Shown here one piece after another: positions 17,104 through 64,000 of a DNA stretch of 64,000 bases. Where the stretch lies: contig JANYED010000167.1 of the NCBI GenBank assembly GCA_025363315.1, positions 8,348 to 72,347 of the forward strand. The letters run 5' to 3'. Positions within the stretch are counted from its first letter, which is position 1; every line of letters begins with the position of its first letter. A program made the position numbers and the translations under genes. The notes under the pieces are model-generated. The model made no database searches, had not been told where the DNA came from, and worked only from the letters and a program-made list of their open reading frames with translations. This DNA comes from Polaromonas sp. GTDB lineage: Bacteria > Pseudomonadota > Gammaproteobacteria > Burkholderiales > Burkholderiaceae_C.

Positions 17104-17163
17104 AGCTGCCGGGTTTTCGAAAATCTGTTGGCAGCAGAGCGCCGCGCCCCCTAACATTGCTGT

Positions 17164-22857: not shown

Positions 22858-22864
22858 TGTGTCT

Positions 22865-25800: not shown

Positions 25801-25927
25801 GCGCAGACCGCTTGGTTTGGCCATTTTTGGGGGGCTTGTGGTCAGTCAGGTGCTGACCCTATTCACGACGCCGGTTATTTATTTGGGGTTTGATCGGTTG
25901 GGGCGTAAATTGGGTCGTAAAGGCTAG
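22865..25927 (+). CDS. mdtB: RND efflux permease (MdtB/MuxB-like)
   Basis: Start MNPSSPFILRPVATSLLM; GFVVDDAIVMIENI, GIVKKNAIMMIDFA, RFRPILMTT. Confidence 0.93.
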   Translation: MNPSSPFILRPVATSLLMLAVVLAGLLGLKFLPLSALPQVDYPTIQVQTLYPGASPEVMAQTVSSPLERQFGQMPGLQRMSTTSAAGVSIITLQFGLGLALDIAEQQVQAAINAGASLLPADLPAPPVYAKINPADAPVLTLAVTSDTLPLTEVQNLVNTRLALKISQVNGVGLVTLSGGQRPAVRIQADVRALASYGLGMDTFRTAITAANANAAKGSIDGPSRAYSINSNDQLVTAQDYKNLIIAYRNGAAVRVSDVAQVVNGAENVKLGAWSNLTPAIILNVQRQPGANVIATVDAIKARLPELQSGLPGSLRVDVLSDRTTGIRASVMHVQIELLLAVLLVVLVIFAFLHSLRATIIASLAVPISLIGTCGAMYMLGYSLNNLSLMALTIATGFVVDDAIVMIENISRYIEEGLAPVEAAIKGAAQIGFTIISLTVSLIAVLIPLLFMGDVVGRLFREFAVTLAITILISAVVSLTLVPMMSARWLKKGPAKTNDSKLQQFFSNVIKRYDRGLTWVFKRQALTLLVAFATLVVTGLLYIVIPKGLFPTQDTGQLQARVQAVQSISYARMAELQQAAAKAILEDPDVENLSSFVGVDAANNTMLHTGRMLINLKKVRTTGQLATMQRLQDRVSKVAGVTLYLQPTQDLTIDAEAGPTQFRVAMEGSDNKVVVLWAKKLAARMAELSSLRHVTTDAGATGASVFVTVDRDTASRLGIATSTIDDALYSAFGQRIVSTIFTETNQYRVILEALPNQLTNAAMLGSLQIKTASGAAAPLDSIATITERPAPLQVTNVDQFPATTLGFDLGPGVALGKAVDDIKRAARDIALPASVSLTFLGASGAYEASLSSQLWLILAALVCVYIVLGVLYESYIHPLTILSTLPSAGVGALLALIVTGNDLGVIGIIGIILLIGIVKKNAIMMIDFAIDAERTQGKSAQDAIHQAALLRFRPILMTTLAALFAAVPLMLGWGEGAELRRPLGLAIFGGLVVSQVLTLFTTPVIYLGFDRLGRKLGRKG

Positions 25928-25938
25928 TTTTCCCTATG

Positions 25939-25992
25939 ATTTATGCCTCTAGACCAATGGATACGGGCGCGAGCAGCTTGTTAATTGATAGC
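25939..25992 (-). repeat. 54-bp motif, copy 6 (intergenic, between mdtB and mdtC)
   Basis: Reverse complement: gctat caattaa caagc tgct cgcgc ccg tatccat tggtct agaggcataaat. Confidence 0.9.
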
Positions 25993-26081
25993 GTGTTTAG
26001 CTTTGCGGAGTTTGCCGGGATTCGCCCAGCATGCTTGGAAGGGGCAACATTTCTCAAACAAAAGCGCAATCTGAGAAATAA

Positions 26082-29000: not shown

Positions 29001-29279
29001 CGCGGCCTGAGCGCGCTTGACGCTGTGCGCGAGGCTTGCGTGCTGCGCTTTCGCCCCATCCTCATGACCACGCTGGCCGCGGTACTGGGCGCCTTGCCAC
29101 TGGCCATTGGCTTTGGCGAGGGGGCCGAGCTGCGCCGCCCACTGGGCATTGCCATCATTGGCGGGCTGATTGCCAGCCAGTTGCTGACGCTTTTAACCAC
29201 ACCCGTTGTGTATGTGTTGATGGACAAGCTGCGCAGGCGCGGTGCGCATGAAGCACATCTGGCGCGGGCAAGTTCTTGA
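26082..29279 (+). CDS. mdtC: RND efflux permease (MdtC/MuxC-like)
   Basis: MNLSEPFVRRPVAT, GFVVDDAIVVLEN, GIVKKNAILIIDFA, RFRPILMTT. Confidence 0.93.
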   Translation: MNLSEPFVRRPVATVLLTVGLALSGIGAFFVLPVSPLPQVDFPVITVSAAIPGASPDTMASSVATPLERRLGAISGVNEMTSSSSSGQTRINLQFDLNRKIDAAAREVQGAINASRVDLPAALRSNPTYRKANPASAPIMILALTSKTRTPGQIYDDVSSLLQQKIAQVPGVGDVELGGGSLPAVRVELLPFALNRYGISMEDVRAALQASNANRPKGAIEDDRDGKGNRLQIYSVGNTASGGLKAADYKNLTVGVRNGASISLGDVANVRDGTENTNTIGLFNGDAAVIVLITRQPGANVIETVDGIRALLPELQAQLPKDVKMSVASDSTNSIRSSLREIEITLLISIVLVVLVVSAFLRSARATFIPAAATVVSLLGTFSVMYLLGFSLNNLSLMALTVATGFVVDDAIVVLENTSRHIEAGMDRFKAALLGAREVGFTVLSISLSLVAVFIPLLFMGGQLGRLFREFAVTLSVAVMISLVISLTTTPMMCAWLLKPHSKTSPGRVSSWFDKRFKQVLRTYEASLDWALHMRWLIMLILVSVVGMNVYLFIKIPKGFFPQQDSGQINGGLRADQSISFQATQGKLKELVDIIRADPAVDTVVGFTGGGRAGGGFMFVNLKPLAQRLEGIGGQAVISRLRPQLARVTGISLFLGPVQDLRGGGRSSNSTYQYTLKSDNVADLRKWAARLADQMKSQVALTDVDTDQQDNAVETMVTVDKDSASRLGITARDIDNALYNGFGQRQVATVYSDLNQYKVIMEISPRFRQSPESLKDIYIPARATGVGVANAAALVNPGLRDQSTGQALSQGSTMVPLSAIAKFSESAKASSVNHQDGELATTVSYNLAEGATLQQGQDAVKQAEAEIGLPNNVRGSFEGTAKAAQDSQGQQPLLILAALVVIYIVLGVLYESLVHPITVLSTLPSAGVGAVLALMIFKLDFSIIALIGVFLLIGIVKKNAILIIDFAIDAERSRGLSALDAVREACVLRFRPILMTTLAAVLGALPLAIGFGEGAELRRPLGIAIIGGLIASQLLTLLTTPVVYVLMDKLRRRGAHEAHLARASS

Positions 29280-34311: not shown

Positions 34312-37300
34312 TTCACACCCCCCACCTTTACCCGCGCATTCGGTGCTTCGCCAAACATTTCGGGCGCGTACATCGCCTCTACGCGGCTTGGCGGCAGTGC
34401 AAAGTCGCCAACGTTGTTCAGGCGCATGGTGTATTGCATCTTGACAACGCCTTTAGGCAGGTACTCGTAATAGCTGCGAAAGGCTTCAAAGCTGCGCTCT
34501 TCAAAAGCTGGCCAGCCGGAGCCTGATTTCTTTTCCCCCTTGGTGGCTATTTCTGAATCACGACCCAGGCCGCTGCCCAAAATGGTTGCGCCGCCGGGAA
34601 TGGGGTCGGTAATCGCTACCCAGGTCATGTCGGCTGATGCATTGACCTCCAGCGTGATACGAACCACGTCGCCACGCGTGTAGATGCCCTTCACAGCTTG
34701 CTCTACCGGGTCCATCGTTTTCTTGATCTGGTAGCCCGCATTGAAGGGTTCTTTGAGCTGCACGGCGGCCAGCGATTGCAGTGTTAGCCACGGTCTGCCT
34801 GTGCCAGTGTGCGTCACGTTCAAGCTGTCTTTAGCCGCTGAAGCCGCTTTGGCCCACGTTAAAAACATCGTGTTGTTGCGCAGATTGCCAGGGGATGCAG
34901 GTGCGCCGAACATGGTGGTTTGGTTGGGTGCGCCGCCCGCATCTGTGGTCTTTACCCGGTCGACCTTGGCCCAGTCGACTTGAGCAGCCGCAGCGGTCAG
35001 CGCGGCCTTGGTTACGCCCGCAACCGGCGTGGCTTCAAACCTGGCAGAGAACTTGTCCAGAGCCAAGCCGCCCCACAAATTGGCGGTTGTCGTCAGCCAC
35101 GCACCTTTTTGCTGGCGGCCAATAAAGCCGTTGGCAAGGCGCCCGATGTCGTCTTTCCACGCCGCGTCGTCCATCACGGCCAGCATCAGGCGCGCGGTGT
35201 TGACGTCGCCATTGACCATCAGCCACCACCAGTAGTCGTCTTTTTCAGTGCTGAAAATCAGTTTGGTGCCCTGGTACGAAAGGCGTGATTTCAAAACCTG
35301 ATTCGCTTCGGCAATACGTTCCTCACGCTTCGGAACATCGCTCACACGCTTCAAAATGCTCAGCCAGTCAATCACCGCATTCGTCGGCCACTGGTTGGGC
35401 GCAATCGTGATGCTGCCGAGCATGCGGCCCTGTGCTTTACCGTAACGGGCAAGCGCTTCAAGTGCGGCGAGTTTGCGCACGTCCAGGTCTTTGCGTGGGC
35501 TCCAAAATTCGCGTTGAATACGGCCTTCAACAAACGCGATCAAGCCGCGCTCCATGGGTGCACGCACATCGTCTGGCAAAGCAAATGCGGGGTTGATGCT
35601 GGCCGCTTCGTGCGTGGCGGCCAGCAGATAAGCGGTCAGTGCATCGCTGCCGCGCGCAGCATCGCCATCACGCGGCGGAAAGTAATTGGCCAGGCCGTCA
35701 CTGTCCAGATAACCCGGGATTTGCCCAACTACCGACTGCCACAGTTTGCCGTCACGCAGGCCGACTGATTTGCTGGTTTTTTGTTCCAGGCAGGCAAACG
35801 GGTAGTTGGCAAACCAGTCACGCACGCCGTCCATACCATCAGCCAGTTTGGGTTGCAGCGACATCTTCAAACCGCCCCGACCTGGCAAGGCATCAGCAGG
35901 CGGGTTCACGTCGAGACTGAACGAACCGTCGACCTGAATCAGCGTGGCTTGCTGCACCGTGAGTGGCACAGCCGGGATGATGCGCTGGCGGGCTTTCAGG
36001 CCATCGCGCACCCCGCTTATCGTGTCTTTGGCTTCAATCTCCCAAAGAATCGCCTCTTGCCGCGTAAAGCCCAGTTGCCCGGGCGCTGTCACCGTCCATG
36101 CCACTTCACGCGCTTCACCTGCAGGAATATCAACAGTCTGCGGCTTCAATTCAAGCAGCGTCGCGCGCGGCGCCACCTCCACTTTCATCGCCGCCTTGGT
36201 CGTGTTACGCAGTGTGATTTGTGCGCGGAACTGATCGTCCTCTCGCACCAGCGGCGGCAAGCCGCTGATGATTTGCAAGTCTTGCGTGGCTTTGATGGAC
36301 GTTTGCCCAGTGCCGAACAAGCCTGTAGCCGCATCAGCCACCGCCACAATTTTGAATGTCGTCAGCGCATCATTGAGCGGCACAGTCACTACTGCCTGGC
36401 CATTCGCATCCAGTTGCACGCGGGGGTTCCACAGCAGCAGGGTGTCGAGCAGCTCGCGCGTGTTGCTTCGGCCACCGCCGCCGCCCGCTGCCACCGCTTT
36501 GCGGCCATAGTGCCTGCGGCCAATGATTTCCATTTGCGCGGTCGAGGTTTCAACGCCCCAGGCGCGGCGTTGCAGCATCGCGTCGAGCAATCCCCAGCTG
36601 CTGTTTGGCATCAGCTCCAGCAGGGCTTGGTCAACCGCAGCCAGTGCCACCTCTGCGTTGGCAGCAGGCTGGCCGCTGGGCAGCTTGACCTGAATCGTCA
36701 CTTTGGCTTGGCTGCGCACGGCGTAGCTTTCTTTGTCGGGCTTCACGCTCACGTCTAACTGATGCGCTTTGGTACCGACGCGGATTTCAGCAAGCCCCAG
36801 CCTGAAGGCAGGCTTGCTCAAATCAACCAGTGCAGTCGGCGCAACGTATTCGCGGCCTTCGTACCAAAAAGATGTCCACCACTCTTTAGGCGCTTTAAAC
36901 CCCCAGGTAAAAAAGCTGTACCAAGGCACTTCACGCAGGCGGCCACGCAGCGCCAGCACACTGACGTACACGTTCGGCCCCCAGCCTTCCTTGATTTTCA
37001 AGCTGATGGTCGGGTCTTGCCCATTGAGCTGCACGACTTGCGTGTCAATGATGCCTTCACGCTCAACCGCCACCAGCGCCGTTGCAAACCTGAAAGGCAT
37101 GCGTACCTGAAACTTGGCCACATCACCGGGTTGGTAGCTTTTTTTCTCGGGCAGCACGTCCATGCGGTCATGGTTTTCACCGCCAAACCACAGCTCGCCC
37201 TGCTTGGTCACGTACACCGAGCTGGCCGCCTGGATGGTGTTGCCATCTTTATCTTTGGCCGTCACGATGAGTTCGACTTCGCCTGCCTCGCCCAGTTTGG

Positions 37301-40292
37301 TTTCACACAGCAGCAGCCCGCGTGCATCGCTTTTGCCGCTGCACACACTGCCTAAATCCTTGATTTCAGTCTTGTTGTCGTAGGTGTAAAAGCCGCCCAC
37401 CATGCGCTTGCGGCTGGTGGTGACAATACGCGCCACGGCCTGCACTGTCAGTGCAATATCTGTAGCAGCGAGCCCCTTTAAATCAAGTGCTAGCGCCTGA
37501 AACTTGATTTTCTGGCTGCTCGACACCCAGCCCTCCGTTTTGATGCCCGCCACTACGCCTGAAGGCCACAACGTGCTCAAGCTTCGAATCGTTTGCACCT
37601 CGCCATTCGGGTCGGCATAGGTGGCTTCCAGCAGCAGCTCTTGCGGTTGTTTGGCAGTAGGTACATCAGAAATGGTGACTTTACCTGCACCGTTTTTGTT
37701 CAGCGTTAACGGCAACTTGTCAGCTATAACGCGCTGGTCTTGTGATGCCGTGGTTTCCTCTTCGCCTTGTGCATTGCCGGTTTGCTTGCCGCGCGGCGGG
37801 CTAAAGCTGAACTCTTCGTAGTCGCTATAGCTTAAATACTTGCCGCGCACCAGGGCTGACACACGCACGGGCAAGTTCACCGCGCCGCCGCCCGCTACAT
37901 AGTTGATTTGCACGTCGGCGGGTACGGACTTGACATTGACCAGCGCCTTTTTGTTGGTGGGCGTAACGCGCCCTTCAAGCACCGGCAAGCGAAACTCTTC
38001 CACTCTGAATTGGCCCGTGCTGATGTTGCCGTTGCTGCTATCGCTATCGCTGTCGCTGTCGTTATTTTTTTGCCTGTCGAGGTAGACCTGATAGATGCCA
38101 AGTTTGGCAGCGGGCGGTATGGCAAATGTGTTCTCGGCGCTTTGGCCACCCGTTGCGGTTTTGCGCCAATTGAGGGCTTGTTTGTACTGCTGTCCGCTAC
38201 CCACGTGGGTGACGATCAGCGTTTCGGGTAACACGCTGGCCAGGCCAAAACCTTTGCTGGTCTCGGTGCGCAAAATATGCTTCATCGACACGGTTTCGCC
38301 CGCTTTGAACAGCGTGCGGTCAAAAATGGTGTGGGCACGTTCGTCGGGCACGGGTTCGCGGCTGGTCGGCACGTTAAAACGCCACGGCTCGATGCCTTTG
38401 TGCCAATTGCTCCAGGTGAAGGCCAAATCATCTGCAGCCCGAGCGCTTATGAAATAAGCGCCATTGGTTTCTGACTCGCCGTCTGAATCACTGCCTGAAC
38501 TATTTCTGTAGCACTGCCCGGGGTCGGGCGACAAGCCGGTGAAGTTGGCAATACCTTGCGCGTTGGTAGTGGCCTTGGCAAGCTGCTTGCCGTTGCAGTC
38601 AGACACCGCCACTTGGGCGTTGGCAACCACCGTACCTTTGTCCAATGTGGTCACCCAGGCCATTGCGTTTTCTCGCCCCAGCTTGAAGTGCACCGCGAGG
38701 TTGGTGACCAGTGCGGATGTACGAACGTACATTGTCCTGGACGCGCCGTAGCGCTCGTCGAGCAACGAGCCTCCTAGTTTTTGCGACGCAATTTCCACCA
38801 CGTGAAAGCCAGGTGAAAGTGGAATACCCACCACCTCAAATGGACGTGGATCCGCGGCGACGGGTTTGGGTAAATCTAAGGTGGTAACTCCCGGCTGACT
38901 TTGCAACAGCGAGACGGTGCGCGATTGAACAGTGTCTTTGTCTCGCTTTTCGAGTACCTTCGGCAATACGCCTTTGACATCACGAATGGCCATGCGGCGC
39001 GGCACTTCATAGCTGTCGTAGCGCTGCACTTTGCGAAACCACGCAATGATTTCTGCATCCGTCTTGGGTTGTAGCCCGTTGACTTTTCCTGGGGTCAGGC
39101 CCTTGATCGGCAAGGCCGCTTCAACGTTGCGCAGCGTCACGGGCAGCAGCGCCATGTAACCAGGCTCGCCGTTATTTTCCGCGTACCGCTCCACAATGCC
39201 AAACGGTGCGGCCGCAAATTTTGCCAGCGGCGGCATCGCGCCGGTGGCTACCCTCAAAGGAAAGCTGTCAGCATTGTTCAGCGGCCGGCCTGATGCGTCT
39301 TTGAAGTCTTTGGGCAGCTCCAGCACATAGGGCGTGGATTCACTGAACAGCGGCTTGAAGGTGATGCTGTTCACCACGTCCGCTGCATCGCCTTCATTTT
39401 CAAACGTCGGCTTAAGCTTGTCTTTGCCGCCCGTCAAACGAATCGCCTCGGCCAGCTTGCGCGGCACCGGTGCGTTGAAGTTCAGGCTCATCGGCCGGAT
39501 GGGCAGACAGGCCGACTGGGCGTTTTCACGCTCGCAGTTGAAGCTGGCAGCAAACGGCTCGCGCACCTTGAAGTTGTAGCGCTTTTCAATGCTGTTGGGT
39601 ATACCGCTTGGCGTGCTGACACCTTTGCCGTAGACCAGTTGCATTTTGCTGGCGGGCGTGAGGCGGCGATTGCAGGTGAGGGCGGCAAACTTCAATGGCT
39701 CGGCGGCTGCGGCTTTGTCCAGCCCCTGCGACTTTAAAAGCGCATCACGCTCTTTGCCCTCAATCAGCTTGACGGGCACTCGCTCGCCCAGGCCCTCAAC
39801 GCTGCACCACACATTGTCTTGAATGCTTTTGAGCGTCGCCGCGCCATTGAGCTGAAGTAAAAAATACTGTTCTTCATCAATCCGCTCGCCACCAGAGGGT
39901 TGCAGGCTTTGAATAAACGGCCCGCTAGTATTGAATTTATAGCTACTTGCGCCCGTCAACAGGGCGCCAGAGGGCGATTTAAGCCCAGCACGCATCTGCA
40001 CATTGCAGTTCACACCCGGCGGTAAGTCGTTTTCAAACTCGAACGCCCATTCGCGGTCGCTGATCCAGCGGCCACTGCCTTTGCTGGCTTGTGCATCGCT
40101 GCAACTTAGCGTCAAAGGCGCAGGCGCTTTGGGGTCGCCAAAATTGACGGCGCTGTCGTCAAACTTGGCCACCACCTGGCGTATGCGCGCCACCTCGCCT
40201 TGCGGACTGAGGCTGGTGATTTGCAGCGCCTGCGTGGGAAGTGCTGCGGCCGCCATACCGGCGGCGATGAGTCTCAAAGTGATGGATAGCAA
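34308..40292 (-). CDS. Bacterial alpha-2-macroglobulin (YfhM-like)
   Basis: About 1990 aa; thioester motif YPFACLEQ; paired with pbpC. GAGGAG RBS 6 nt before TTG at 40292 suggests this start rather than 40340. Confidence 0.92.
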   Translation of the reverse strand: MLSITLRLIAAGMAAAALPTQALQITSLSPQGEVARIRQVVAKFDDSAVNFGDPKAPAPLTLSCSDAQASKGSGRWISDREWAFEFENDLPPGVNCNVQMRAGLKSPSGALLTGASSYKFNTSGPFIQSLQPSGGERIDEEQYFLLQLNGAATLKSIQDNVWCSVEGLGERVPVKLIEGKERDALLKSQGLDKAAAAEPLKFAALTCNRRLTPASKMQLVYGKGVSTPSGIPNSIEKRYNFKVREPFAASFNCERENAQSACLPIRPMSLNFNAPVPRKLAEAIRLTGGKDKLKPTFENEGDAADVVNSITFKPLFSESTPYVLELPKDFKDASGRPLNNADSFPLRVATGAMPPLAKFAAAPFGIVERYAENNGEPGYMALLPVTLRNVEAALPIKGLTPGKVNGLQPKTDAEIIAWFRKVQRYDSYEVPRRMAIRDVKGVLPKVLEKRDKDTVQSRTVSLLQSQPGVTTLDLPKPVAADPRPFEVVGIPLSPGFHVVEIASQKLGGSLLDERYGASRTMYVRTSALVTNLAVHFKLGRENAMAWVTTLDKGTVVANAQVAVSDCNGKQLAKATTNAQGIANFTGLSPDPGQCYRNSSGSDSDGESETNGAYFISARAADDLAFTWSNWHKGIEPWRFNVPTSREPVPDERAHTIFDRTLFKAGETVSMKHILRTETSKGFGLASVLPETLIVTHVGSGQQYKQALNWRKTATGGQSAENTFAIPPAAKLGIYQVYLDRQKNNDSDSDSDSSNGNISTGQFRVEEFRLPVLEGRVTPTNKKALVNVKSVPADVQINYVAGGGAVNLPVRVSALVRGKYLSYSDYEEFSFSPPRGKQTGNAQGEEETTASQDQRVIADKLPLTLNKNGAGKVTISDVPTAKQPQELLLEATYADPNGEVQTIRSLSTLWPSGVVAGIKTEGWVSSSQKIKFQALALDLKGLAATDIALTVQAVARIVTTSRKRMVGGFYTYDNKTEIKDLGSVCSGKSDARGLLLCETKLGEAGEVELIVTAKDKDGNTIQAASSVYVTKQGELWFGGENHDRMDVLPEKKSYQPGDVAKFQVRMPFRFATALVAVEREGIIDTQVVQLNGQDPTISLKIKEGWGPNVYVSVLALRGRLREVPWYSFFTWGFKAPKEWWTSFWYEGREYVAPTALVDLSKPAFRLGLAEIRVGTKAHQLDVSVKPDKESYAVRSQAKVTIQVKLPSGQPAANAEVALAAVDQALLELMPNSSWGLLDAMLQRRAWGVETSTAQMEIIGRRHYGRKAVAAGGGGGRSNTRELLDTLLLWNPRVQLDANGQAVVTVPLNDALTTFKIVAVADAATGLFGTGQTSIKATQDLQIISGLPPLVREDDQFRAQITLRNTTKAAMKVEVAPRATLLELKPQTVDIPAGEAREVAWTVTAPGQLGFTRQEAILWEIEAKDTISGVRDGLKARQRIIPAVPLTVQQATLIQVDGSFSLDVNPPADALPGRGGLKMSLQPKLADGMDGVRDWFANYPFACLEQKTSKSVGLRDGKLWQSVVGQIPGYLDSDGLANYFPPRDGDAARGSDALTAYLLAATHEAASINPAFALPDDVRAPMERGLIAFVEGRIQREFWSPRKDLDVRKLAALEALARYGKAQGRMLGSITIAPNQWPTNAVIDWLSILKRVSDVPKREERIAEANQVLKSRLSYQGTKLIFSTEKDDYWWWLMVNGDVNTARLMLAVMDDAAWKDDIGRLANGFIGRQQKGAWLTTTANLWGGLALDKFSARFEATPVAGVTKAALTAAAAQVDWAKVDRVKTTDAGGAPNQTTMFGAPASPGNLRNNTMFLTWAKAASAAKDSLNVTHTGTGRPWLTLQSLAAVQLKEPFNAGYQIKKTMDPVEQAVKGIYTRGDVVRITLEVNASADMTWVAITDPIPGGATILGSGLGRDSEIATKGEKKSGSGWPAFEERSFEAFRSYYEYLPKGVVKMQYTMRLNNVGDFALPPSRVEAMYAPEMFGEAPNARVKVGGVK
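39927..39980 (+). repeat. 54-bp motif, copy 9 (antisense inside A2M, KSPSGALLTGASSYKFNT)
   Basis: agtat tgaattt atagc tact tgcgc ccg tcaacag ggcgcc agagggcgattt. Confidence 0.82.
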
Positions 40293-40424
40293 GGTGGGCT
40301 CCTCAAAATTTGTCTTTTTTGACTCTCGAGAGTAGCTCAATTGAAAGCACTTTCGGTTACATCGCCTTGCAACAGGTTGCGACTTTTGCCCATGACAATC
40401 GGGCTTTGATTCAGAAGCTCCGGA

Positions 40425-43788: not shown

Positions 43789-44529
43789 ATGAAACTGAGA
43801 GTGCTGCTGGTGGATGACGAAGCGCTGGCCAGAGCCCGGCTGCGCGTTCTGCTGGCCGACTGCCATGCCCCCGCAGCCGCCGTGGTGGCAGAAGCCGGTG
43901 ATGCCGCGCAGGCCATGGTCGCCATCCGGCAGCATGCGCTCGATGTGGTGTTGCTTGACGTGCGCATGCCCGGCATCAGTGGCGTGCAACTGGCGCAGGC
44001 GATTGCCGGGCTGCCCCAGCCACCGGCCGTGGTGTTCGTCACCGCGCATGCAGAGCACGCGGTGCAGGCCTTTGAAGTCGAAGCGGTGGATTACCTGACC
44101 AAACCGGTGCGGTTGGAACGATTGCAGCAAGCGCTACAAAAAGTGGAGCGGCTAGCCAATATTAACGCTGGGCTGCAGCCAGATTTATCAGGTGAAGTGC
44201 TGATCATTCAAGACCGCGGCCGCACCGAGCGCGTGCCACTGGCCGAGGTCTTGTACCTCAAAGCCGAGCTCAAATACATCACCGTGCGGACCGCCAGGCA
44301 GAGCTACATTCTGGATGGTGCGTTAAATGAGCTGGAAGAAAAGTACGCCGCCCACTTCATGCGCGTCCACCGCAATGCTTTGATTGCGCGCCGCGCGGTG
44401 CGGGCACTCGTCAAGCATTTTGACGATGAAGAAGGTGAAGGCTGGGCGGTACGACTCAGCGGCATTGACGAGCTTCTGGCGGTGTCGCGTCGCCAGCTCA
44501 GCGCAGTGCGCGAAGCCATTGCCAGCTGA
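43789..44529 (+). CDS. LytTR-family response regulator (AlgR-like)
   Basis: LVDDE, LLDVRMPG, FVTAH, DYLTKP receiver; LytTR domain with AELKY and RVHRNALI. Confidence 0.92.
   Translation: MKLRVLLVDDEALARARLRVLLADCHAPAAAVVAEAGDAAQAMVAIRQHALDVVLLDVRMPGISGVQLAQAIAGLPQPPAVVFVTAHAEHAVQAFEVEAVDYLTKPVRLERLQQALQKVERLANINAGLQPDLSGEVLIIQDRGRTERVPLAEVLYLKAELKYITVRTARQSYILDGALNELEEKYAAHFMRVHRNALIARRAVRALVKHFDDEEGEGWAVRLSGIDELLAVSRRQLSAVREAIAS
44133..44186 (+). repeat. 54-bp motif, copy 10 (degenerate, in the REC-LytTR linker)
   Basis: gctac aaaaagt ggagc ggct agcca ata ttaacgc tgggct gcagccagattt; aligns ungapped to copy 15. Confidence 0.72.
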
Positions 44530-46527: not shown

Positions 46528-47811
46528 TCAGCATAACTGCTGCGAAATCACGGTTTTTTCTATCAGCCGGTCATCGCCGAGCGTGATGAGTGCAAAGAGC
46601 AGCTCATCGAGGTTGTTTGCGCGGGCGGCTTTGCGGGCCAGCAGGGGTGTGGCCTGCGGGTTGACGATGACAAAGTCAGCCTCGCAGCCCGGTTGCAGGT
46701 TGCCGACCACGCCCGCCAAGCCCATGGCCTGGGCGGCACCTGCCGTGTGTTGCCACCACAGCTGCTGCGGCTTAATCGACAGGCCGGGTTTGGTGGCCCC
46801 TTCCCGGCCCACGTAATACGCGGCCAACATGGTGTGAAACGGGCTGAACGACGTGCCGCCGCCCACGTCGCTGGCCAGGCCGTAAGAAAAACCCGCCTGG
46901 TCGGCCGCGCGATAGTCAAAATAGCCGCTGCCCAAAAAGAGGTTGCTGGTCGGGCTGACCGCGGCAGCTGTGCCCGTGCTTCGCATCAAGGCGCGGTCGT
47001 CATCGTCAATATGAATGCAGTGGGCGTACACGGCTTTGGGCCGCAGCAGACCAAATTGTTCGTACACGCTGAGGTAGCTGCGAGCCTTCGGGTACAGGCG
47101 TTTGACCCAGGCGATTTCATCCTTGTTCTCCGCCACGTGGGACTGAATCCACACGTCTGGATACTTGGCTGCCAGCACGCCCGCGCCCTGCAATTGCGCC
47201 GCGCTGCTGGTCGGTACAAAGCGTGGGGTGATCGCATAACCCAGCCGGTCAATGCCGTGCCATTTGTTGATCAGGGCTTCAGTATCGACGAGACTCTGCT
47301 TTGTTTCATCACGCAGGCCGTCGGGGGCGTTTTGGTCCATCAGTACCTTGCCAGCCACCATGCGCAAACTTTGCTTTCGCGCCTCGCCCAGCAGTGCGTC
47401 AACAGATTGTCGGTGTGATGTGGCAAAAGTGAGCGCGGTTGTCACGCCATTGCGAAGCAGTTCTGCTATGAAGAACGTAGCTGCTTGCGCACAGTATTCG
47501 GGCGCTGCAAAGCGCTTTTCTTCTGGAAAGGTGTGGTTCTTCAGCCACGGCAGCAAGCCGTCAGCGGGCAAGCCCATCACGTCTGTCTGCGGGAAGTGGA
47601 TGTGCATGTCTACAAAACCAGGGGCGATGATGCGGCCGGGCAGGTGTTCAACCGGCAAGTCGGGGTAGCTCGAACGCAAGCTTTGAAAGCTGCCAATGGC
47701 CTGGACGACCTGGCGACCTTGTGTGTTGGGGCCTGCGACGAGCAGCCCGTCTTGTTCAAAAACGGCGTCGCGGCCCTTGAAGTGCAGCAGCGAGGCGCGG
47801 TAGGCTTTCAT
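46528..47811 (-). CDS. guaD: Guanine deaminase
   Basis: PGFVDMHIHFPQ, WLKNHTFPEE, AITPRF, QSHVAEN, AHCIH, SNLFLGSG, ASDVGGGTS. Confidence 0.93.
   Translation of the reverse strand: MKAYRASLLHFKGRDAVFEQDGLLVAGPNTQGRQVVQAIGSFQSLRSSYPDLPVEHLPGRIIAPGFVDMHIHFPQTDVMGLPADGLLPWLKNHTFPEEKRFAAPEYCAQAATFFIAELLRNGVTTALTFATSHRQSVDALLGEARKQSLRMVAGKVLMDQNAPDGLRDETKQSLVDTEALINKWHGIDRLGYAITPRFVPTSSAAQLQGAGVLAAKYPDVWIQSHVAENKDEIAWVKRLYPKARSYLSVYEQFGLLRPKAVYAHCIHIDDDDRALMRSTGTAAAVSPTSNLFLGSGYFDYRAADQAGFSYGLASDVGGGTSFSPFHTMLAAYYVGREGATKPGLSIKPQQLWWQHTAGAAQAMGLAGVVGNLQPGCEADFVIVNPQATPLLARKAARANNLDELLFALITLGDDRLIEKTVISQQLC
47465..47518 (+). repeat. 54-bp motif, copy 13 (antisense inside guaD, KRFAAPEYCAQAATFFIA)
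   Basis: gctat gaagaac gtagc tgct tgcgc aca gtattcg ggcgct gcaaagcgcttt. Confidence 0.82.
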
Positions 47812-56495: not shown

Positions 56496-56523
56496 GTTGG
56501 TGAGTTCGTGTTTTCAGGGTATG

Positions 56524-56577
56524 TTTTAAGGCTGCAGCACAATATATTCGGGCGCGAGCAGCTATGATTTTCGTAGC
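56524..56577 (-). repeat. 54-bp motif, copy 14; supplies the last codons and stop of the LysR gene
   Basis: Reverse complement: gctac gaaaatc atagc tgct cgcgc ccg aatatat tgtgct gcagccttaaaa; TAG at 56562-56564. Confidence 0.9.
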
Positions 56578-57503
56578 GTTGTGGCGACCGATTTGATGCG
56601 TTCACGCAGCCACTTGGACGCATTCGACGCATGCGTTCGCTCGTGCCACAGCTGGTAGTACATCATGCGCGGAAACTCAATCGGGCTGGGCAAAATACGC
56701 AGTGGCAGCAGTTTGGCAAAGCGCTCGCAGTACTGCCGCCCGGTTGTCATCACCAGCAAGCTGGACGCCACCATCGACGGCATCAGGCCAAAGTGCGGGC
56801 AACGCACTGTAATGTTGCGTTGCAAGCCCAGCGTGGCGAGGTGTTCGTCAATCACGCCTTTTGCGCCCGGGTGGGTGGCGGTCGGCGCAATGTGCTCGGC
56901 CTCCAGCCAGCGCGCCAGGTTTTTCGGGTCCCACTTGCGGCGCACCGCAGGGTGGTCTTTGGCGACCATGCACACCACCTCGTCGCCAAACAGGCGCCCC
57001 ATGTGCAGATCGTCCGGCAGGTCCGCCCAGTTGCCAATCACGATGTCGACCTGACCCTGCGCCAAATGGGTGCGGTAATCAGACTCGGCCGACAGCGACT
57101 GGATGTCTATGTGGCAGCGCGGCGCCTGCGCCTTGATTTGTGCCACCAATTGCGGCAAGAACAAAGGGTCGAGGTAGTCGCTAGCTGCTATTTTGAAGGT
57201 GACTTGCGCGGTGGCCACGTCAAAGCCCTTGGCGTCGCTGAAGAGCATGCCGGCTGACCGCAAAATATGAGCCGAAGGCTCCAGCATGCGCAGCCCGGCG
57301 TCGGTCGGTACCATGCCGCTGCCTGAGCGCACCAGAATCGGGTCGCCCGCCAGCTCGCGCAGGCGCTTAAGCGCAGCGCTGACGGCACTTTGGTACATGC
57401 CCAGGCGCATGGCGGCGCGCGACACACTGCGTTCGGTAAGCACGGTATTCAAGACCTTGATGAGATGAAAATCTATCTTGTCGAAAAGTGCCTGGTCTTT
57501 CAT
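56562..57503 (-). CDS. LysR-family transcriptional regulator
   Basis: N-terminal HTH (ERSVSRAAMRLGMYQSAVSAALKRLRE..GDPILVR), FKIAASDY; divergent from xdhA. Confidence 0.92.
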   Translation of the reverse strand: MKDQALFDKIDFHLIKVLNTVLTERSVSRAAMRLGMYQSAVSAALKRLRELAGDPILVRSGSGMVPTDAGLRMLEPSAHILRSAGMLFSDAKGFDVATAQVTFKIAASDYLDPLFLPQLVAQIKAQAPRCHIDIQSLSAESDYRTHLAQGQVDIVIGNWADLPDDLHMGRLFGDEVVCMVAKDHPAVRRKWDPKNLARWLEAEHIAPTATHPGAKGVIDEHLATLGLQRNITVRCPHFGLMPSMVASSLLVMTTGRQYCERFAKLLPLRILPSPIEFPRMMYYQLWHERTHASNASKWLRERIKSVATTLRKS

Positions 57504-57574
57504 ATGCCTTTGTTCATAGCCTCGATATGGTTTTCAGTATGCAAGTAGCGCGCCTGCTGTCTTACCCTGCCAGA

Positions 57575-59104
57575 ATGTCTAGCATGTCCAGTATGTCATT
57601 ACCCCCGGTTTCTTCTGTCAGCGTGCACTCGGTTCGCTTTTTAAAAGCGGGGCACATGGTGTCTCTGCGCAATGTACCACCCAGCCGCACGCTGCTGGAG
57701 GTGCTGCGCGAAGAGCTGGGCAGTACCGCCACCAAAGAAGGCTGCGGTGAGGGCGACTGCGGTGCCTGTACGGTGGTGTTGGGTGAAAAGGTCGACGGTA
57801 AGCTGATCTTCAAGGCCGTGAACAGCTGCATCCGGCTGGCGCATTCGGTCGACGGCATGGCGGTCTGGACGGCTGAGGACATCGCCTCAGTCGATGGTCA
57901 GCTTCACCCGGCTCAAGAGGCGATGGTGCAGTGCCATGGTTCGCAATGTGGCTTTTGCACGCCCGGCTTTGTGATGAGCATGTTTGCGATGTACCAAAAC
58001 CACGTCTGCAAAGGCCAGACCATCACGCGTGAGCTGGCTCAAACCGAGCTGTCTGGCAACCTGTGCCGCTGCACCGGATACAGGCCGATTCTGGACGCTG
58101 CTCAGCAGATGGCAGCTCTTCCCAAAGCGCTTGTGGATGAGCGCAGCGTGCTACAAAAATTAGAGCTGCTCGCGCCCGAATCTATTGGGCTTGAGGCTGA
58201 TTTGGCAGGTAAAATCGGGTATCAGTCGCCGGTTTCACTGTCTGCGCTGCTGCAAATGCGCTCCCAAAACCCTGGCGCGCAAATTGTGGCGGGCACCACC
58301 GATGTGGGGCTGTGGGTGACCAAGCAGCACCTCCAGTTTGACCAGATCATTGACGTGACGCGGGCAGCCGAGTTGCGGCGGATTGAAGACTATCCGCACC
58401 ATATCGCCATAGGCGCGGCCGTCACGCTGAACGATGCCTATGTCGCGTTGGTAAAAGGCAGGCCGCAGCTGCAGGGCTTTGCAGCGAGGTTTGCGGGCCT
58501 GTCGGTGCGCAATTCGGGCACGCTGGGGGGCAATGTGGCTGGCGGCTCGCCGATTGGCGATTCCATGCCGCTGCTGATTGCGTTGGGCGCCAGCGTGGTG
58601 CTGATGAGCCAAAAGAACGGAAAAACAAGCAGCCGTGAGTTTGCACTGGAGGACTTTTACACCGGCTACAAGCAAAACCAACTGGCCGCCGATGAAGTGC
58701 TGGCCTGGATCAAAGTGCCCAAGCCCACGCCGCATGAGTTCTTGCGCATCTACAAAATCTCCAAACGCTTTGACGACGATATCTCGGCCGTTTGCCTGGG
58801 GCTGAATTTGCAGATCGACAACGGCCACGTGGTGAAAGCGTCCATTGGCATTGGCGGTGTTGCGGCCACGCCGGTACGCGCTATTAAAACAGAAGCTGCT
58901 TGCGCCCGTAAATCATGGTCTAAAGCCACTGTGAACTATGCGATGACTGTCCTCAGGGGTGAGTTTTCACCGATCTCTGACATGCGTGCGTCCAGCGCCT
59001 ACCGCACGCAAGTGTTGGGTAACCTGCTCGAGCGCTTCTGGCATGAAAGCCAGGGCTTGCAGCACATCAACCTGCAGTCCTTCACCCTTGAGGCGGCTGT
59101 ATGA
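57575..59104 (+). CDS. xdhA: Xanthine dehydrogenase small subunit (2Fe-2S/FAD)
   Basis: KEGCGEGDCGACTV, QCGFCTPG, GNLCRCTGY, AGTTDVG, ISKRFDDDIS, SDMRAS; start at 57575, 57584 or 57593. Confidence 0.95.
   Translation: MSSMSSMSLPPVSSVSVHSVRFLKAGHMVSLRNVPPSRTLLEVLREELGSTATKEGCGEGDCGACTVVLGEKVDGKLIFKAVNSCIRLAHSVDGMAVWTAEDIASVDGQLHPAQEAMVQCHGSQCGFCTPGFVMSMFAMYQNHVCKGQTITRELAQTELSGNLCRCTGYRPILDAAQQMAALPKALVDERSVLQKLELLAPESIGLEADLAGKIGYQSPVSLSALLQMRSQNPGAQIVAGTTDVGLWVTKQHLQFDQIIDVTRAAELRRIEDYPHHIAIGAAVTLNDAYVALVKGRPQLQGFAARFAGLSVRNSGTLGGNVAGGSPIGDSMPLLIALGASVVLMSQKNGKTSSREFALEDFYTGYKQNQLAADEVLAWIKVPKPTPHEFLRIYKISKRFDDDISAVCLGLNLQIDNGHVVKASIGIGGVAATPVRAIKTEAACARKSWSKATVNYAMTVLRGEFSPISDMRASSAYRTQVLGNLLERFWHESQGLQHINLQSFTLEAAV
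58150..58203 (+). repeat. 54-bp motif, copy 15 (inside the xdhA Fe-S/FAD linker, LQKLELLAPESIGLEADL)
   Basis: gctac aaaaatt agagc tgct cgcgc ccg aatctat tgggct tgaggctgattt. Confidence 0.92.
58880..58933 (+). repeat. 54-bp motif, copy 16 (inside the xdhA C-terminal domain, AIKTEAACARKSWSKATV)
   Basis: gctat taaaaca gaagc tgct tgcgc ccg taaatca tggtct aaagccactgtg. Confidence 0.9.
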
Positions 59105-61563
59105 GCGCAGCCAGATACAGCCCCATCAGCCCCATCAGCTCCATCAGCCCCATCAGCCCCGATGCAGTGGCGGACCCGGATGTGACGGCGCCAGACGCGC
59201 ATGCGGATGAGACGCCTGCCCACGACAGCACTGTGCGGCTGGCCGAGGCATCAGCTGAGCCTATCGTAAAGGCAGCTGTGACTGCTGCGGGCCAGTCCCG
59301 GTTTCATGAAAGCGCGCGCGCTCAGGTGGCCGGTGCCGCGAGCTACGTTGACGATATTCCTGAAATCAAAGGCACGCTGTATGCCGCGCCAATTCTTTCT
59401 ACCGTTGCCCACGGCAAGCTGCTGGGCGTGGACTGCACAGCGGCGCTGGCGATGCCGGGTGTCGTGGATGTGATCTTGCCTGCTGACATTCCTGGCGAGC
59501 AACTGCTGGCCACCTTTGCCCACGATGAACCGGTGTTTGCGCACCGGGTTGTCGAGCATGTTGGCCAGGTCATTGGCGCGGTGGTGGCTAACAGTGTGAT
59601 GCAAGCCCGACGTGCTGCGCGCGCCGTGGTGTGCCGCATTGAGGCCTTGCCCGCTTTGTTGAATGTGCACGACGCGCTGAAGGCCAAAAGCTTTGTGTTG
59701 CCGCCAGTCACCGTCAAGCGCGGCGATGCCAGCAAGGCTTTGAAGTCAGCGCAGTACACCCTGCACGGTCAGCTGGAAGTCGGCGGACAAGAGCACTTTT
59801 ACCTCGAAGGGCAGGTGGCCTATGCGGTGCCGCAAGAACAAAACCAATGGTTGATTTACGCCAGCACCCAGCACCCGGGCGAGGTGCAGCACTGGGTGGC
59901 GCATGCCCTGGGCATTGAGAACCACCGGGTGGTGGTGGAATGTCGGCGCATGGGTGGCGGCTTTGGCGGCAAAGAAACGCAGGCCGGGCATATGGCGGTG
60001 TGGGCGGCGATTGCGGCGCATAAATTAAAGCGGCCAGTCAAATTGCGGCTTGACAGGGACGACGACTTTTTAATCACCGGCAAGCGCCACCCGTTTGCCT
60101 ACGATTACAGCGTGGGGTTTGACGACACCGGCCGCATCACTGGCCTCCAAATGACAATGCTGGCCAACTGCGGCTTCAGCGCTGACCTGTCGGGCCCGGT
60201 AGCTGACCGCGCTATTTTTCACGTCGACAACGCCTACTTTTTGCAAGACGTGGACATCACCTCTTACCGCCTGAAAACCCATACCCAAAGCCATACCGCG
60301 TTTCGCGGCTTCGGCGGGCCACAGGGCATGATCGTGATTGAAAACATCATGGGTGACATTGCCCGCAAGCTGGGCTTGGACGCGCTGGATGTGCGCAAAC
60401 GCAACCTGTATGGCATCGGCGAGCGGGACGTGACGCATTACCAAATGAAAGTTGAAGACAATATCCTTGGGCCGCTGCTCTCAAAACTGGAGCGGACAGC
60501 GGACTACCGAAAACGCCAAACCACTATTGCCGCCTGGAACAAGCAAAGCCCCGTCATCAAACGCGGGCTGGCCATCACGCCCGTGAAGTTCGGCATCTCT
60601 TTCACGGCCACCTTGTTCAACCAGGCGGGCGCCCTGGTGCATGTGTATCTGGACGGCAGTGTGCAGGTCAACCACGGCGGCACTGAAATGGGGCAGGGCC
60701 TGAACACCAAAGTCTGCCAGATTGTGGCGGACGAGCTGGGCGTGGCGTTTGACTGCGTACTGGCCACGGCCAGCGACACCAGCAAAGTGCCCAACGCATC
60801 AGCCACTGCGGCATCTGCAGGCACCGACCTGAACGCGCGCGCCGCGCAATATGCGGCCAGGCACGTGCGTGACAACCTGGCGCAATTTGTGAGCGGCCTG
60901 GACAACTGCGGCGCGGGCGCAGTACGCTTTGCAGGCGGGCGCGTCAGCACGCCAAACAATGCACGATTGTTTGTTGATGTAGTCAAGCTGGCGTACGCTA
61001 ATCGGGTCCAGTTGTGGTCAGACGGCTTTTACCGAACACCCAAAATCCACTACGACAAAACCACGCTCACCGGCCGGCCGTTTTACTATTTTGCCTATGG
61101 CGCGGCGTGTACCGAGGTGGCCATCGACACGCTGACGGGTGAGTCGCGCGTACTCAAAGTTGATATCCTGCACGACGTGGGCACGTCCATTAACCCGGCC
61201 ATCGACATTGGGCAGATCGAAGGCGGCTTTGTGCAGGGCATGGGCTGGCTGACGACCGAGCAACTGGTGTGGAACGACAAAGGCCTGCTGACAACACACG
61301 CCCCGAGCACCTACAAAATCCCCGCAACGGGCGATATCCCTGCGCATCTCAAAGTTGACCTATGGCCAGAGCCAAACCGGGAAGACAACGTCTACGGCAG
61401 CAAGGCCGTGGGCGAGCCGCCTTTCATGCTGGCCATCAGTGTGTATGAGGCGATGAAAGCGGCGGTTGCGGCGGCGTCCGGTAACCAGGCGCGCATCGCG
61501 TTGAAGGCACCCGCCACGGCTGAAAATGTGCTGAGCAGTTTGTCAGCATCGCACAGCGCTTGA
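59101..61563 (+). CDS. xdhB: Xanthine dehydrogenase molybdopterin-binding subunit
   Basis: GGQEHFYLEG, RRMGGGFGGKE, AFRGFGGPQG, GGTEMGQG, IDIGQIEGG, SKAVGEPP; 4-bp overlap with xdhA. Confidence 0.95.
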   Translation: MSAARYSPISPISSISPISPDAVADPDVTAPDAHADETPAHDSTVRLAEASAEPIVKAAVTAAGQSRFHESARAQVAGAASYVDDIPEIKGTLYAAPILSTVAHGKLLGVDCTAALAMPGVVDVILPADIPGEQLLATFAHDEPVFAHRVVEHVGQVIGAVVANSVMQARRAARAVVCRIEALPALLNVHDALKAKSFVLPPVTVKRGDASKALKSAQYTLHGQLEVGGQEHFYLEGQVAYAVPQEQNQWLIYASTQHPGEVQHWVAHALGIENHRVVVECRRMGGGFGGKETQAGHMAVWAAIAAHKLKRPVKLRLDRDDDFLITGKRHPFAYDYSVGFDDTGRITGLQMTMLANCGFSADLSGPVADRAIFHVDNAYFLQDVDITSYRLKTHTQSHTAFRGFGGPQGMIVIENIMGDIARKLGLDALDVRKRNLYGIGERDVTHYQMKVEDNILGPLLSKLERTADYRKRQTTIAAWNKQSPVIKRGLAITPVKFGISFTATLFNQAGALVHVYLDGSVQVNHGGTEMGQGLNTKVCQIVADELGVAFDCVLATASDTSKVPNASATAASAGTDLNARAAQYAARHVRDNLAQFVSGLDNCGAGAVRFAGGRVSTPNNARLFVDVVKLAYANRVQLWSDGFYRTPKIHYDKTTLTGRPFYYFAYGAACTEVAIDTLTGESRVLKVDILHDVGTSINPAIDIGQIEGGFVQGMGWLTTEQLVWNDKGLLTTHAPSTYKIPATGDIPAHLKVDLWPEPNREDNVYGSKAVGEPPFMLAISVYEAMKAAVAAASGNQARIALKAPATAENVLSSLSASHSA
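59118..59162 (+). repeat. 9-bp tandem repeat (CAGCCCCAT) x5 in the xdhB 5' end
   Basis: cagccccat cagccccat cagctccat cagccccat cagccccga(t), encoding SPISPISSISPISP. Confidence 0.85.
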
Positions 61564-62742: not shown

Positions 62743-64000
62743 CTACACCGGTCTGAACAGATCCCACATCATCATCACCACTGCAAAGCCCATAACGCCG
62801 ACGCCGCCCCAGCCAAACCAGCGGGTTTTAACGCCTGAGGTAAAGCTGCCCATGACCTCTGTTTTGCCTGCCAGCAGCATCATGCCGGCCATGATGGGTG
62901 CAGCCACCACGCCGTTGATCACAGCGCTCCAGTAAAGCGCTTTCATCGGGTCTATCGGCGTAAAGTCAAGCCCGGTGCCGACGATGGTGGCCACCGCGAT
63001 GATGGCGTAAAAGCGCTTGGCCTCAAACCATTGCCGTTCCAGACCGTCAGGCCAGTCAAAGGCCTCGGCCACTGCATAGGCAGCCGAAGATGCAAGCACT
63101 GGCACCGCCAGCATGCCGGTCGCAATGATGCCGCCAGCAAACAGCGCAAAGGCAAAGTCCCCAGCCAGCGGGCGCAGCGCTTGTGCGGCCTGTGCAGCGG
63201 TTGTTACATCGCGAATGCCCGCTCCGTACAGCACCACGCCACCCAGTACCATGATGAAAAACGCCACGGCGTTTGAAAAGATCATCCCGACGTAGGTGTC
63301 ACGCTTGACGCGCTTCAAGTCATGGCGAATTGCTCGGTCAGTACCACGTCCCTTGCCTTTTAACCGCAACTCTTCGACCTCTTGCGACGCTTGCCAGAAA
63401 AACAGGTACGGTGAAATCGTGGTGCCCAGCAGCGCCACAATCATCATCCAGTAACCCGACGTCCATTGCAGTTTGGGAATCACCAGGTCATGCAGCACGC
63501 GGCCCCAAGGCACATCGACCAGAAACACGGCGATGACGTAAGCAAACAAAAACAGCGTGAGCCATTTCAGAATGGGTGCCAGCTTGCGATACGGCACAAA
63601 CACCTGCAGTAGCACCGTCAACACGCCAAACACCACCGCGTGAAAGTGCGCGCCACCGCCCACCACCAATTGCAGGGCTTCGCCCATGGCGGCAATGTCG
63701 GCCGCAATGTTGATCGTGTTGGCCACCACCAGCAAAAAGACCATCGTCATTAAAAAAGAGCGCGGCGTGTGGTCGCGCAAGTTGGCGGCCACCCCTTTGC
63801 CGGTGACCCGGCCAATCCGCGCGCTGACCAGTTGAATCGCAATCATGAACGGCAGCGACAAAAATACTGTCCAGAGCAGCCCGGTGCCAAACTGCGCGCC
63901 GGCCTGGGTATAGGTGGTAATGCCTGATGGGTCGTCATCAGCCGCACCGGTAACGATGCCCGGGCCGACATGGCGTAAGAATGACGGAAGATATTGACGC
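62743..64000 (-). CDS. Second NRAMP-superfamily transporter, 5' end outside the window
   Basis: Frame is open to the window edge: ...FLRHVGPGIVTGAADDDPSGITTYTQAG... and LGTTISPYLFFWQASQEVEE; paralog of 205..1482. Confidence 0.88.
   Translation of the reverse strand, partial: RQYLPSFLRHVGPGIVTGAADDDPSGITTYTQAGAQFGTGLLWTVFLSLPFMIAIQLVSARIGRVTGKGVAANLRDHTPRSFLMTMVFLLVVANTINIAADIAAMGEALQLVVGGGAHFHAVVFGVLTVLLQVFVPYRKLAPILKWLTLFLFAYVIAVFLVDVPWGRVLHDLVIPKLQWTSGYWMMIVALLGTTISPYLFFWQASQEVEELRLKGKGRGTDRAIRHDLKRVKRDTYVGMIFSNAVAFFIMVLGGVVLYGAGIRDVTTAAQAAQALRPLAGDFAFALFAGGIIATGMLAVPVLASSAAYAVAEAFDWPDGLERQWFEAKRFYAIIAVATIVGTGLDFTPIDPMKALYWSAVINGVVAAPIMAGMMLLAGKTEVMGSFTSGVKTRWFGWGGVGVMGFAVVMMMWDLFRPV

Follow-up and report, generated by a model that had tools for sequence, protein, structure and literature searches.

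The stretch of Polaromonas sp. DNA analysed here (64,000 nt, hereafter the window; GenBank assembly GCA_025363315.1, contig JANYED010000167.1, positions 8,348 to 72,347 of the forward strand) carries xdhA, the gene for the Fe-S/FAD small subunit of xanthine dehydrogenase, and within this gene two copies of a dispersed motif of about 60 nt. The open reading frame at 57488-59104 contains xdhA, for which we took the ATG at 57575 as the start of translation; in the database the gene is called from 57527, further upstream (525 aa). The product matches Rhodobacter capsulatus XdhA (1JRO chain A) with an E value of 2.8e-94, and its four Pfam domains (Fer2, Fer2_2, FAD_binding_5 and CO_deh_flav_C), with xdhB located downstream, identify it as an XdhA. 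In syntenic relatives xdhB has the Ald_Xan_dh_C and MoCoBD domains. An AlphaFold2 model of XdhA has a mean pLDDT of 70. The closest XdhA relatives are found in Polaromonas metagenome-assembled genomes, reaching 79% identity when species representatives are compared and 83-91% in metagenomes. The window itself occurs in sediment and rock metagenomes, and in DNA metagenomes only.

The motif has the consensus GCTATT.AAT....TAGCTGCTyGCGCCCGtAT.TATTGGkCT..AGGC. Loose metagenome contig ends and a sister dialect (see below) indicate that it continues 3′ as ..GATTTGGCTTAAAAAC or ..ATACCTAAAAA, giving three conserved blocks over ~60-80 nt. The 15-mer core AGCTGCTYGCGCCCG occurs exactly at 58164-58178 and at 58894-58908, both within xdhA. 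With up to two mismatches the core has 13 matches in the window against 1.3 expected, a number reached in none of 100 shuffles. An nhmmer profile and a position matrix were trained on the 12 copies outside xdhA, the two xdhA copies being left out. By profile the window holds 14 strong copies, seven on each strand; the matrix scores of the family span 42 to 81 bits, compared with a mean of -78 (s.d. 16) over all window positions. Six of the 14 are wholly intragenic and three more overlap stop codons, with several reading frames in use. The intragenic copies run in the sense direction in xdhA (two) and pbpC (two) and antisense in guaD and in an alpha-2-macroglobulin (A2M) gene. Contig depth in four metagenome runs (X1-X4) climbs from ~45-90 to 870-6000 at the core of the first xdhA copy (58103-58236) and to 340-740 at the second (58840-58906), and unitigs end at the motif. 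Because of these spikes the motif must be very abundant in the source community.

Both xdhA segments are genuine members of a motif dispersed through Polaromonas and related Comamonadaceae. The profile trained without them matched each over its whole length, at 58148-58205 (49.1 bits, E 1.5e-14) and 58877-58928 (39.4 bits, E 1.7e-11), and their matrix scores lie inside the family range. The first, copy 15, sits in the Fe-S/FAD linker, reads LQKLELLAPESIGLEA with the core AGCTGCTCGCGCCCG and encodes (V)LQKLELLAPESIGLEADLA. The second, copy 16, sits in the CO_deh_flav_C domain, reads AIKTEAACARKSWSKATV with the core AGCTGCTTGCGCCCG and encodes AIKTEAACARKSWSKAT. The GCTA of copy 15 starts at a third codon position (58150) and that of copy 16 at a first (58880). 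A first-pass annotation of the window had proposed two copies here in just these reading phases, and had stated that the C-terminal one leaves the length of the protein unchanged, with 27 residues from P.RA to the next conserved motif as in R. capsulatus XdhA. All of this is borne out, and the linker copy proves to be length-neutral as well. Across copy 16 the spacing from A436 to F464 is 27 residues in 81 of 81 XdhA sequences, with no 18-aa indel; the 27-residue pattern also fits 112 of 120 further metagenome homologues. After P.RA the window reads IKTEAACARKSWSKATVNYAMTVLRGE, which aligns to 1JRO chain A without a gap. Across copy 15 the invariant P183 and Y216 are 32 residues apart in the window and either 28 (12 sequences) or 32 (eight) in motif-bearing homologues; the median in 44 motif-less homologues is 28 (range 24-41). 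In the window's clade copy 15 is followed by four extra codons, which correspond to the motif's 3′ extension. Neither copy is therefore an insertion. In the AlphaFold2 model copy 15 forms a helix (189-199) followed by a disordered linker (201-212), and copy 16 an ordered helix-loop-helix (437-463, pLDDT 82-90). Since the same arrangement is seen in four metagenome runs and in relatives at 91% and 83% identity, the two copies are not an assembly artefact.

The effect of copy 16 on the protein was examined by comparing eight sequences, the window and L001-L007 (clade A), with 73 other homologues. Position 443 is Leu in 73 of 73 sequences outside clade A and Cys in seven of the eight within it. 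Position 445 is Gly in 69 of 73 and Arg, His or Gly in clade A; position 447 is Pro in 53 of 73 and Asp, His, Ser or Tyr in clade A. In the wider metagenomic clade the near-invariant Gly445 has become Arg, His or Tyr. The codons in clade A are GCT ATT AAA ACA GAA GCT GCT TGC GCC CGT AAA ... TGG TCA AAA GCC, where the other homologues have GCC.TC CAG ACC GAA GCC GCC CTG ACC GGC CAG CCC TGG ACC. The two consensus sequences differ at 29 nucleotides, 20 of them changed towards the motif and one away from it, and with them the matrix score climbs from -41.5 to 53.5. At copy 15, 24 consensus differences run towards the motif and none away. Because 20 of the 29 differences run towards the motif, synonymous sites included, the change is explained by the DNA and not by the protein. 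Native residues are kept where the motif is degenerate (T, E, W, T) and altered where it is specific (Leu to Cys, Gly to Arg, Pro to others).

Within xdhA these changes are concentrated in one patch. Clade-specific fixed changes account for 12 of 54 nt in the copy-16 patch and 28 of 1356 elsewhere (odds ratio 13.6, p 7e-9), and residues 437-454 form the densest 18-codon window of such changes in xdhA. Third codon positions are A or T in 65-77% of cases in the two patches, compared with 31% elsewhere in xdhA, and synonymous codon identity among clade members is 0.76-0.81 in the patches and 0.57 elsewhere. The annotation had read a change of the usual L.G to C.R and had suggested that amino-acid changes were accepted to fit the DNA motif. 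Both statements stand up: CAR-type residues are not the norm of the family, and the direction of the substitutions and the A/T-ending codons of the patches support the second. In motif-less orthologues the two xdhA sites already score about 2 s.d. above random positions. Codons already present at both sites were converted towards the motif, from a native sequence that was half a match beforehand: the native copy-15 site has LL.KL..L encoded by CTGCTG...AGCTG, and the native copy-16 site is A..TEAAL.G..W.

Copy 16 is a property of the clade and is not specific to the window's genome. The peptide IKTEAAC(A/T/L)(R/H/G/Y)..WSKAT is common to over 100 metagenomic XdhA clusters (70-83% identity), and the event must be old because so many lineages share it. 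The relatives at 91% (L083 and L084) and 83% (L081) identity retain every copy in the 16-18 kb that they share with the window. We note that in L083 (10565-10631) and L084 (5348-5414) the 3′ part of copy 16 has changed from TCT AAA GCC to TCT GCA GGC, nearer the CTGCAGsC variant of other copies, and that the core has moved off the motif (GCT TCT CTC). A copy at the position upstream of xdhA, which in the window is the end of the LysR gene, was found in the window, in L048 and in 10 Polaromonas-type loci (12 sources in all). Confirmation that the gene upstream is a LysR was obtained only for the window, L081, L083 and L084. In the XdhA tree, many separate branches have a copy-15 site with a score over 15 bits, and intermediate scores form a continuum.

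Two sequences, L054 and L061, belong to a distant XdhA branch with motif-less neighbours. Both of their xdhA sites carry a motif with a variant centre, ...GCTGCT(TG/CT)AGCAG....TACA.GGGC (centre ..GCTGCTTGAGCAG....TACA.GGGC), and within L054 the two copies share 80% identity, as against 52-66% with copies from other genomes. A scan of metagenome contigs with this variant returned 58 contigs, nearly all from three related assemblies, which define a dialect with the consensus TTGCTAT.AAATTAATAGCTGCTTGAGCAGTATTTACAAGGGCTGGAGGCCGATTTGGCTTAAAAAC. The dialect has the architecture of the window motif and a different centre, the cores being GCGCCCG..TATTGGGC (W-type) and GAGCAG..TACAAGGGC (D-type). 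The two cores exclude each other: counts of W-type and D-type cores are 9 and 0 in the window, 0 and 75 in the dialect contigs, and 0 and 3 in L054 and L061. We rely more on this census than on tests of same-genome similarity. The xdhA sites therefore carry whichever version of the motif their genome uses. They were either written independently at the same two pre-adapted places or are co-evolving with the family; the matching of dialects at these sites therefore requires an active, directional process on the DNA.

The motif is found within other genes in the same way. The guaD copy, which is probably the first case of overwriting to which the annotation's account of xdhA was the second, encodes EYCAQAATFFIAE, and the alignment to Escherichia coli guanine deaminase (6OHB) is ungapped across it; this copy also brings in a Cys (EYCAQAA in place of EYAREMS). 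The inner pbpC copy falls, by Pfam, in the linker between the transpeptidase and C-terminal domains, and the linker peptide (..SGAARARIDWATG..) is recognisable in most of 70 PbpC homologues inspected, which are mostly of Polaromonas type. Both pbpC copies share the frame of copy 16, giving A(A/S)(C/R)AR..W. The A2M copy lies downstream of a hydrophobic N-terminal stretch that by eye resembles a signal peptide; the protein is a bacterial alpha-2-macroglobulin of 2010 aa, and the frame is one base off that of the guaD copy. A weak motif-like site (44125-44191, ~22 bits) was seen in an open reading frame that by eye resembles a two-domain response regulator. It falls in the apparent inter-domain linker in the frame of copy 15 and gives ALQKVERLANINAGLQPDLSG, compared with VLQKLELLAPESIGLEADLAG in xdhA. 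In the lineage with the second dialect the motif lies in PurK, where the alignment to 4E4T is ungapped, in the linker of an ABC exporter and in two further long open reading frames, which by eye resemble a membrane permease and a helicase. All features of the window are collected in Table 1.

Table 1. Genes of the xdhA locus and members of the motif family in the window
Feature	Coordinates	Strand	Score or basis
xdhA, Fe-S/FAD small subunit of xanthine dehydrogenase	57575-59104	+	Pfam and 1JRO_A match
xdhB, molybdopterin subunit	59101-61563	+	820-aa ORF; start overlaps xdhA stop (ATGA)
LysR-type regulator gene, divergent from xdhA	56562-57503		
Copy 15, Fe-S/FAD linker of XdhA	58148-58208	+	nhmmer 49.1 bits, matrix 61 bits
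Copy 16, CO_deh_flav_C domain of XdhA	58877-58930	+	nhmmer 39.4 bits, matrix 48 bits
Family member over last codons and TAG stop of LysR gene	56520-56579	-	49 bits
Family member in guaD (46528-47811, minus), antisense, encodes EKRFAAPEYCAQAATFFIAE	47461-47520	+	34.5 bits
Family member in pbpC (31939-34311, minus), sense, encodes FATDSGAARARVDWATD	32248-32306	-	52.7 bits
Family member at pbpC 5′ end, encodes hydrophobic N-terminal segment CIAIYLIASCARICWATA	34221-34281	-	46.1 bits
Family member in alpha-2-macroglobulin gene (34308-40340, minus), antisense, residues 119-139	39922-39982	+	41 bits
Intergenic family member, inverted pair with 5557-5617	5433-5495	+	55.1 bits
Intergenic family member, inverted pair with 5433-5495	5557-5617	-	45.0 bits
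Family member over RNase PH gene stop codon	13265-13326	+	55.6 bits
Family member over HxlR-type regulator gene stop codon	15664-15722	-	53.7 bits
Intergenic family member downstream of short-chain dehydrogenase gene	17047-17109	-	49.8 bits
Intergenic family member between two AcrB-type genes	25936-25994	-	51.3 bits
Family member directly after AI-2E-family transporter gene stop codon	46060-46122	+	43.6 bits

The copies at the ends of the RNase PH, HxlR and LysR genes provide the last codons and the stop codon of each. Pfam domains support the identities of the RNase PH, HxlR, AI-2E-family and alpha-2-macroglobulin genes. The inverted pair, 124 nt from start to start, lies where a phage-type integrase gene (3858-5207, minus) and a GreA/GreB-family gene (5647-6243) diverge. 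A link to a transposase was considered for this pair and rejected: neither flanking gene is a RAYT (the transposase associated with repetitive extragenic palindromic, REP, sequences). The tandem AcrB-type transporter genes (22823-25927 and 26082-29279), with a motif copy in their spacer, contain stretches 70-76% identical at an offset of 3241 nt. Two Nramp-family genes stand at opposite ends of the window (205-1482 and 62743-63861) and are 76% identical over 89 nt (1132-1220 and 63655-63743); the left one, beside the integrase, may be part of an island. At its 5′ end (59117-59160) xdhB has ~4.5 tandem copies of a 9-nt unit (CCCCATCAG / CTCCATCAG), which encode SPISPISSISPISP as an N-terminal extension before the conserved part of XdhB.

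The family was also examined for RNA structure and for signs of mobility. RNAalifold found no consensus structure in 29 copies, and explicit counting in three candidate helices gave covariation no higher than in shuffles. Rfam at the gathering threshold identified only a tRNA in the whole window, and nothing meaningful for two copies of the motif at E <= 10. The family is nearly star-like: nearest-neighbour identity is 0.651 compared with 0.625 +/- 0.006 in column shuffles, its maximum is unexceptional, and no two copies are near-identical. None of the window open reading frames tested, including those beside the inverted pair, is a Y1/RAYT transposase gene. The lack of a supported hairpin, the star-like family and the copies inside genes speak against a classic mobile element. 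BLAST of a 61-nt consensus against plasmid and phage collections gave no match, which is weak evidence, since short copies that had diverged would fall below the threshold. The core sequence was not found in the literature, nor did we find literature on uptake sequences or competence in this bacterial family.

The reading we favour, which we rate a little better than even, is that native codons have been rewritten in place, towards the motif, by a genome-wide, sequence-directed process. The 'overwriting' of the annotation would then be better described as directional substitution in place than as a pasted donor copy. The process would act most easily where, as at the two xdhA sites, the native sequence is already half a match to the motif. 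A genome-wide bias directed by the sequence would fix variants closer to the motif at each site in place, and would keep all copies matched to the host's own version. The dynamics would be those of DNA uptake sequences, that is, biased transmission or conversion of the better-matching variants, with no need for transposition or in-frame insertion. What would set the case apart is the motif, unusually long, dialect-forming and codon-overwriting. More specifically, the motif, ~60 nt long and with dialects, might itself be a self-recognition signal or a signal of the DNA-uptake type, as yet undescribed, in Polaromonas and related Comamonadaceae, spread by biased transmission with enough strength to overwrite codons of housekeeping enzymes, among them an invariant residue of XdhA; this is a tentative proposal and, as we judge it, unlikely.

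Several points weigh against directed rewriting in place. A single templated replacement of the patch would leave an equal burst of substitutions. The tests of same-genome similarity are only modestly significant (p 0.015-0.017), and each depends for the most part on a single genome; for copy 16 the argument from dialects comes from one lineage (L054 and L061). The 3′ half of the copy-16 core (GCGCCCG, A-R) is poorly kept, with AR, AH, TG, LG and AY all occurring, and several lineages have Leu, Ile, Phe or Tyr in place of the Cys, which is lost in the 91% relatives (ASLARKTWSAGT) and in the 83% relative (AAIAYQAWSKAT). On this evidence copy 16 could be a relic in decay instead of a site under maintenance, and the drift from Cys to Leu, Ile or Phe suggests repair of a mildly costly change. 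Finally, at ~60-80 nt the motif is much longer than the 9-12-nt cores, within ~30 nt, of the uptake signal sequences (USS) of Pasteurellaceae and the DNA uptake sequences (DUS) of Neisseriaceae.

The same burst of substitutions might have arisen in one step, if another copy of the repeat had served as template for repair or gene conversion of a ~55-nt patch at micro-homologies, with in-frame, equal-length outcomes selected. The clustering of changes within a single patch (12 of 54 nt) and a single branch is as expected for this, as are the 80% identity of the two L054 xdhA copies, the close likeness by eye of copy 15 to the intergenic copy at 5433 from GAGCTGCTCGCGCCCGAAT to TATTGGGCTTG, and a nearest-neighbour similarity in the family slightly above column shuffles. 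However, the site before the event was only about half identical to the motif, judged on the consensus rows, and at that level there is no known mechanism; RecA-type conversion is generally held to need far more than ~50% identity. Native codons persist inside the patch (ACA GAA for T-E, and TGG), the family contains no near-identical donor-recipient pairs, and the event would have to recur at these two sites in different lineages, each with its own dialect. One-step replacement appears an improbable account, if the best of the competing ones.

A motif written into xdhA once, in an ancestor and by whatever mechanism, and since then inherited passively under protein constraint only would explain why copy 16 is common to the whole clade and why its core is eroding in most members, with Cys giving way to Leu, Ile or Phe. 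It would also fit the observation, made by eye, that the copy-16 region is the fastest-diverging between the window and a 91% relative (~12 of 58 nt compared with ~9% overall). Passive inheritance is nevertheless hard to reconcile with synonymous positions in the patches that are more conserved than the rest of xdhA and end in A or T in a G+C-rich gene, with orthologous xdhA sites that carry the dialect of their own genome, and with copy-15 scores that are patchy over the tree and often intermediate. We consider it distinctly unlikely.

A small mobile element that inserted in frame, as Rickettsia palindromic elements do, with a later deletion to compensate, can be given very little credence. 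The family is dispersed, in both orientations and in several proteins, as a mobile element would be, and clade A and a few others do have four extra codons after copy 15 that match the 3′ extension of the element (GATTTGGC..AAAA). Yet where 18-20 codons would be expected there is no gain in length (81 of 81 sequences for copy 16; median 28 with and 28 without the motif for copy 15), guaD and PurK are ungapped too, and conserved native residues remain in register. Around the copies we noticed, by eye, neither terminal inverted repeats nor target duplications, no systematic search being made. Chance or protein-level convergence, in which likeness to the motif is a by-product of selection for the peptide, for instance for a useful Cys, is barely credible: the native peptide A..TEAAL.G..W does encode part of the motif and motif-less orthologues do score above random positions, but E values of 1e-11 to 1e-14 come from a profile that excluded the xdhA copies, unrelated proteins carry the same motif, on either strand and in several frames, and the directional changes, synonymous sites included, with the A/T-ending codons of the patches therefore exclude it.

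If a word of ~60 nt is indeed imposed on coding sequence without indels, a force at the level of the DNA competes with selection on the protein. The imposition is seen in several enzymes and several frames, in step with the dialect of the host lineage. Rewriting in place, if true, would extend molecular drive of the uptake-sequence type to a new bacterial group and a much longer signal, and would provide a natural experiment on how much sequence a protein cedes to a constraint on its DNA; one example is the replacement by Cys of a Leu that 73 of 73 other sequences keep, followed by partial reversions. On the practical side, copies of the motif break assemblies and can mislead alignments and selection tests on these genes.

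Among known systems, the Rickettsia-type palindromic elements (RPE) resemble the motif as dispersed repeats found in frame in many unrelated functional proteins, whose peptide lies in a linker or surface helix. An RPE is an insertion and lengthens the protein by ~30-50 residues. The motif adds none and no palindromic structure is supported; an RPE-like element was rejected since the protein is not lengthened (27 residues in 81 of 81; 28 or 32 compared with a median of 28). REP sequences and REPINs, like MITEs (transposable elements of the miniature inverted-repeat type), are extragenic by definition, form hairpins and occur in clusters of near-identical copies. The motif is likewise a short dispersed repeat, often at gene ends and with one inverted pair (5433 / 5557). 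However, six of its 14 copies are intragenic, no covariation was found and the family is star-like, which argues against a REP/REPIN-RAYT system; among the tested open reading frames of the window none is a RAYT gene. A MITE was rejected on the star-like family without near-identical pairs and on positions conserved across species. The beta-proteobacterial repeat element BRE, in Bordetella the bprJ repeat, occurs in Polaromonas, Rhodoferax, Acidovorax and Bordetella with some copies intragenic, measures ~90 bp, often stands in tandem arrays that vary in number and never exceeds 29 copies in a genome (Hot et al. 2011; PMC3110155). It is found in the same genera as the motif, with which it was compared by description.

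HIP1 of cyanobacteria is an over-represented word that falls within coding sequence, free of indels, and is conserved at orthologous sites. The motif shares these features; HIP1, however, is an 8-nt palindrome, whereas the motif is ~60 nt long, is not palindromic overall and has dialects. Lineage-specific dialects at orthologous positions are a feature of DUS, and the same is seen here, the xdhA copies following their host genome. Among USS and DUS, 34-65% of copies lie inside genes (PMC2817400), and these sequences sit at poorly conserved residues under little constraint (Findlay and Redfield 2009; PMC2817400). Copy 16 differs in having replaced a Leu that is invariant elsewhere. As with USS and DUS, the motif has a high copy number, is over-represented on both strands and has a large intragenic share; its copies within xdhA, guaD and PurK are free of indels and thus length-neutral, built by substitution, and they occupy particular reading frames in which the peptide is tolerated, within a family that is star-like.

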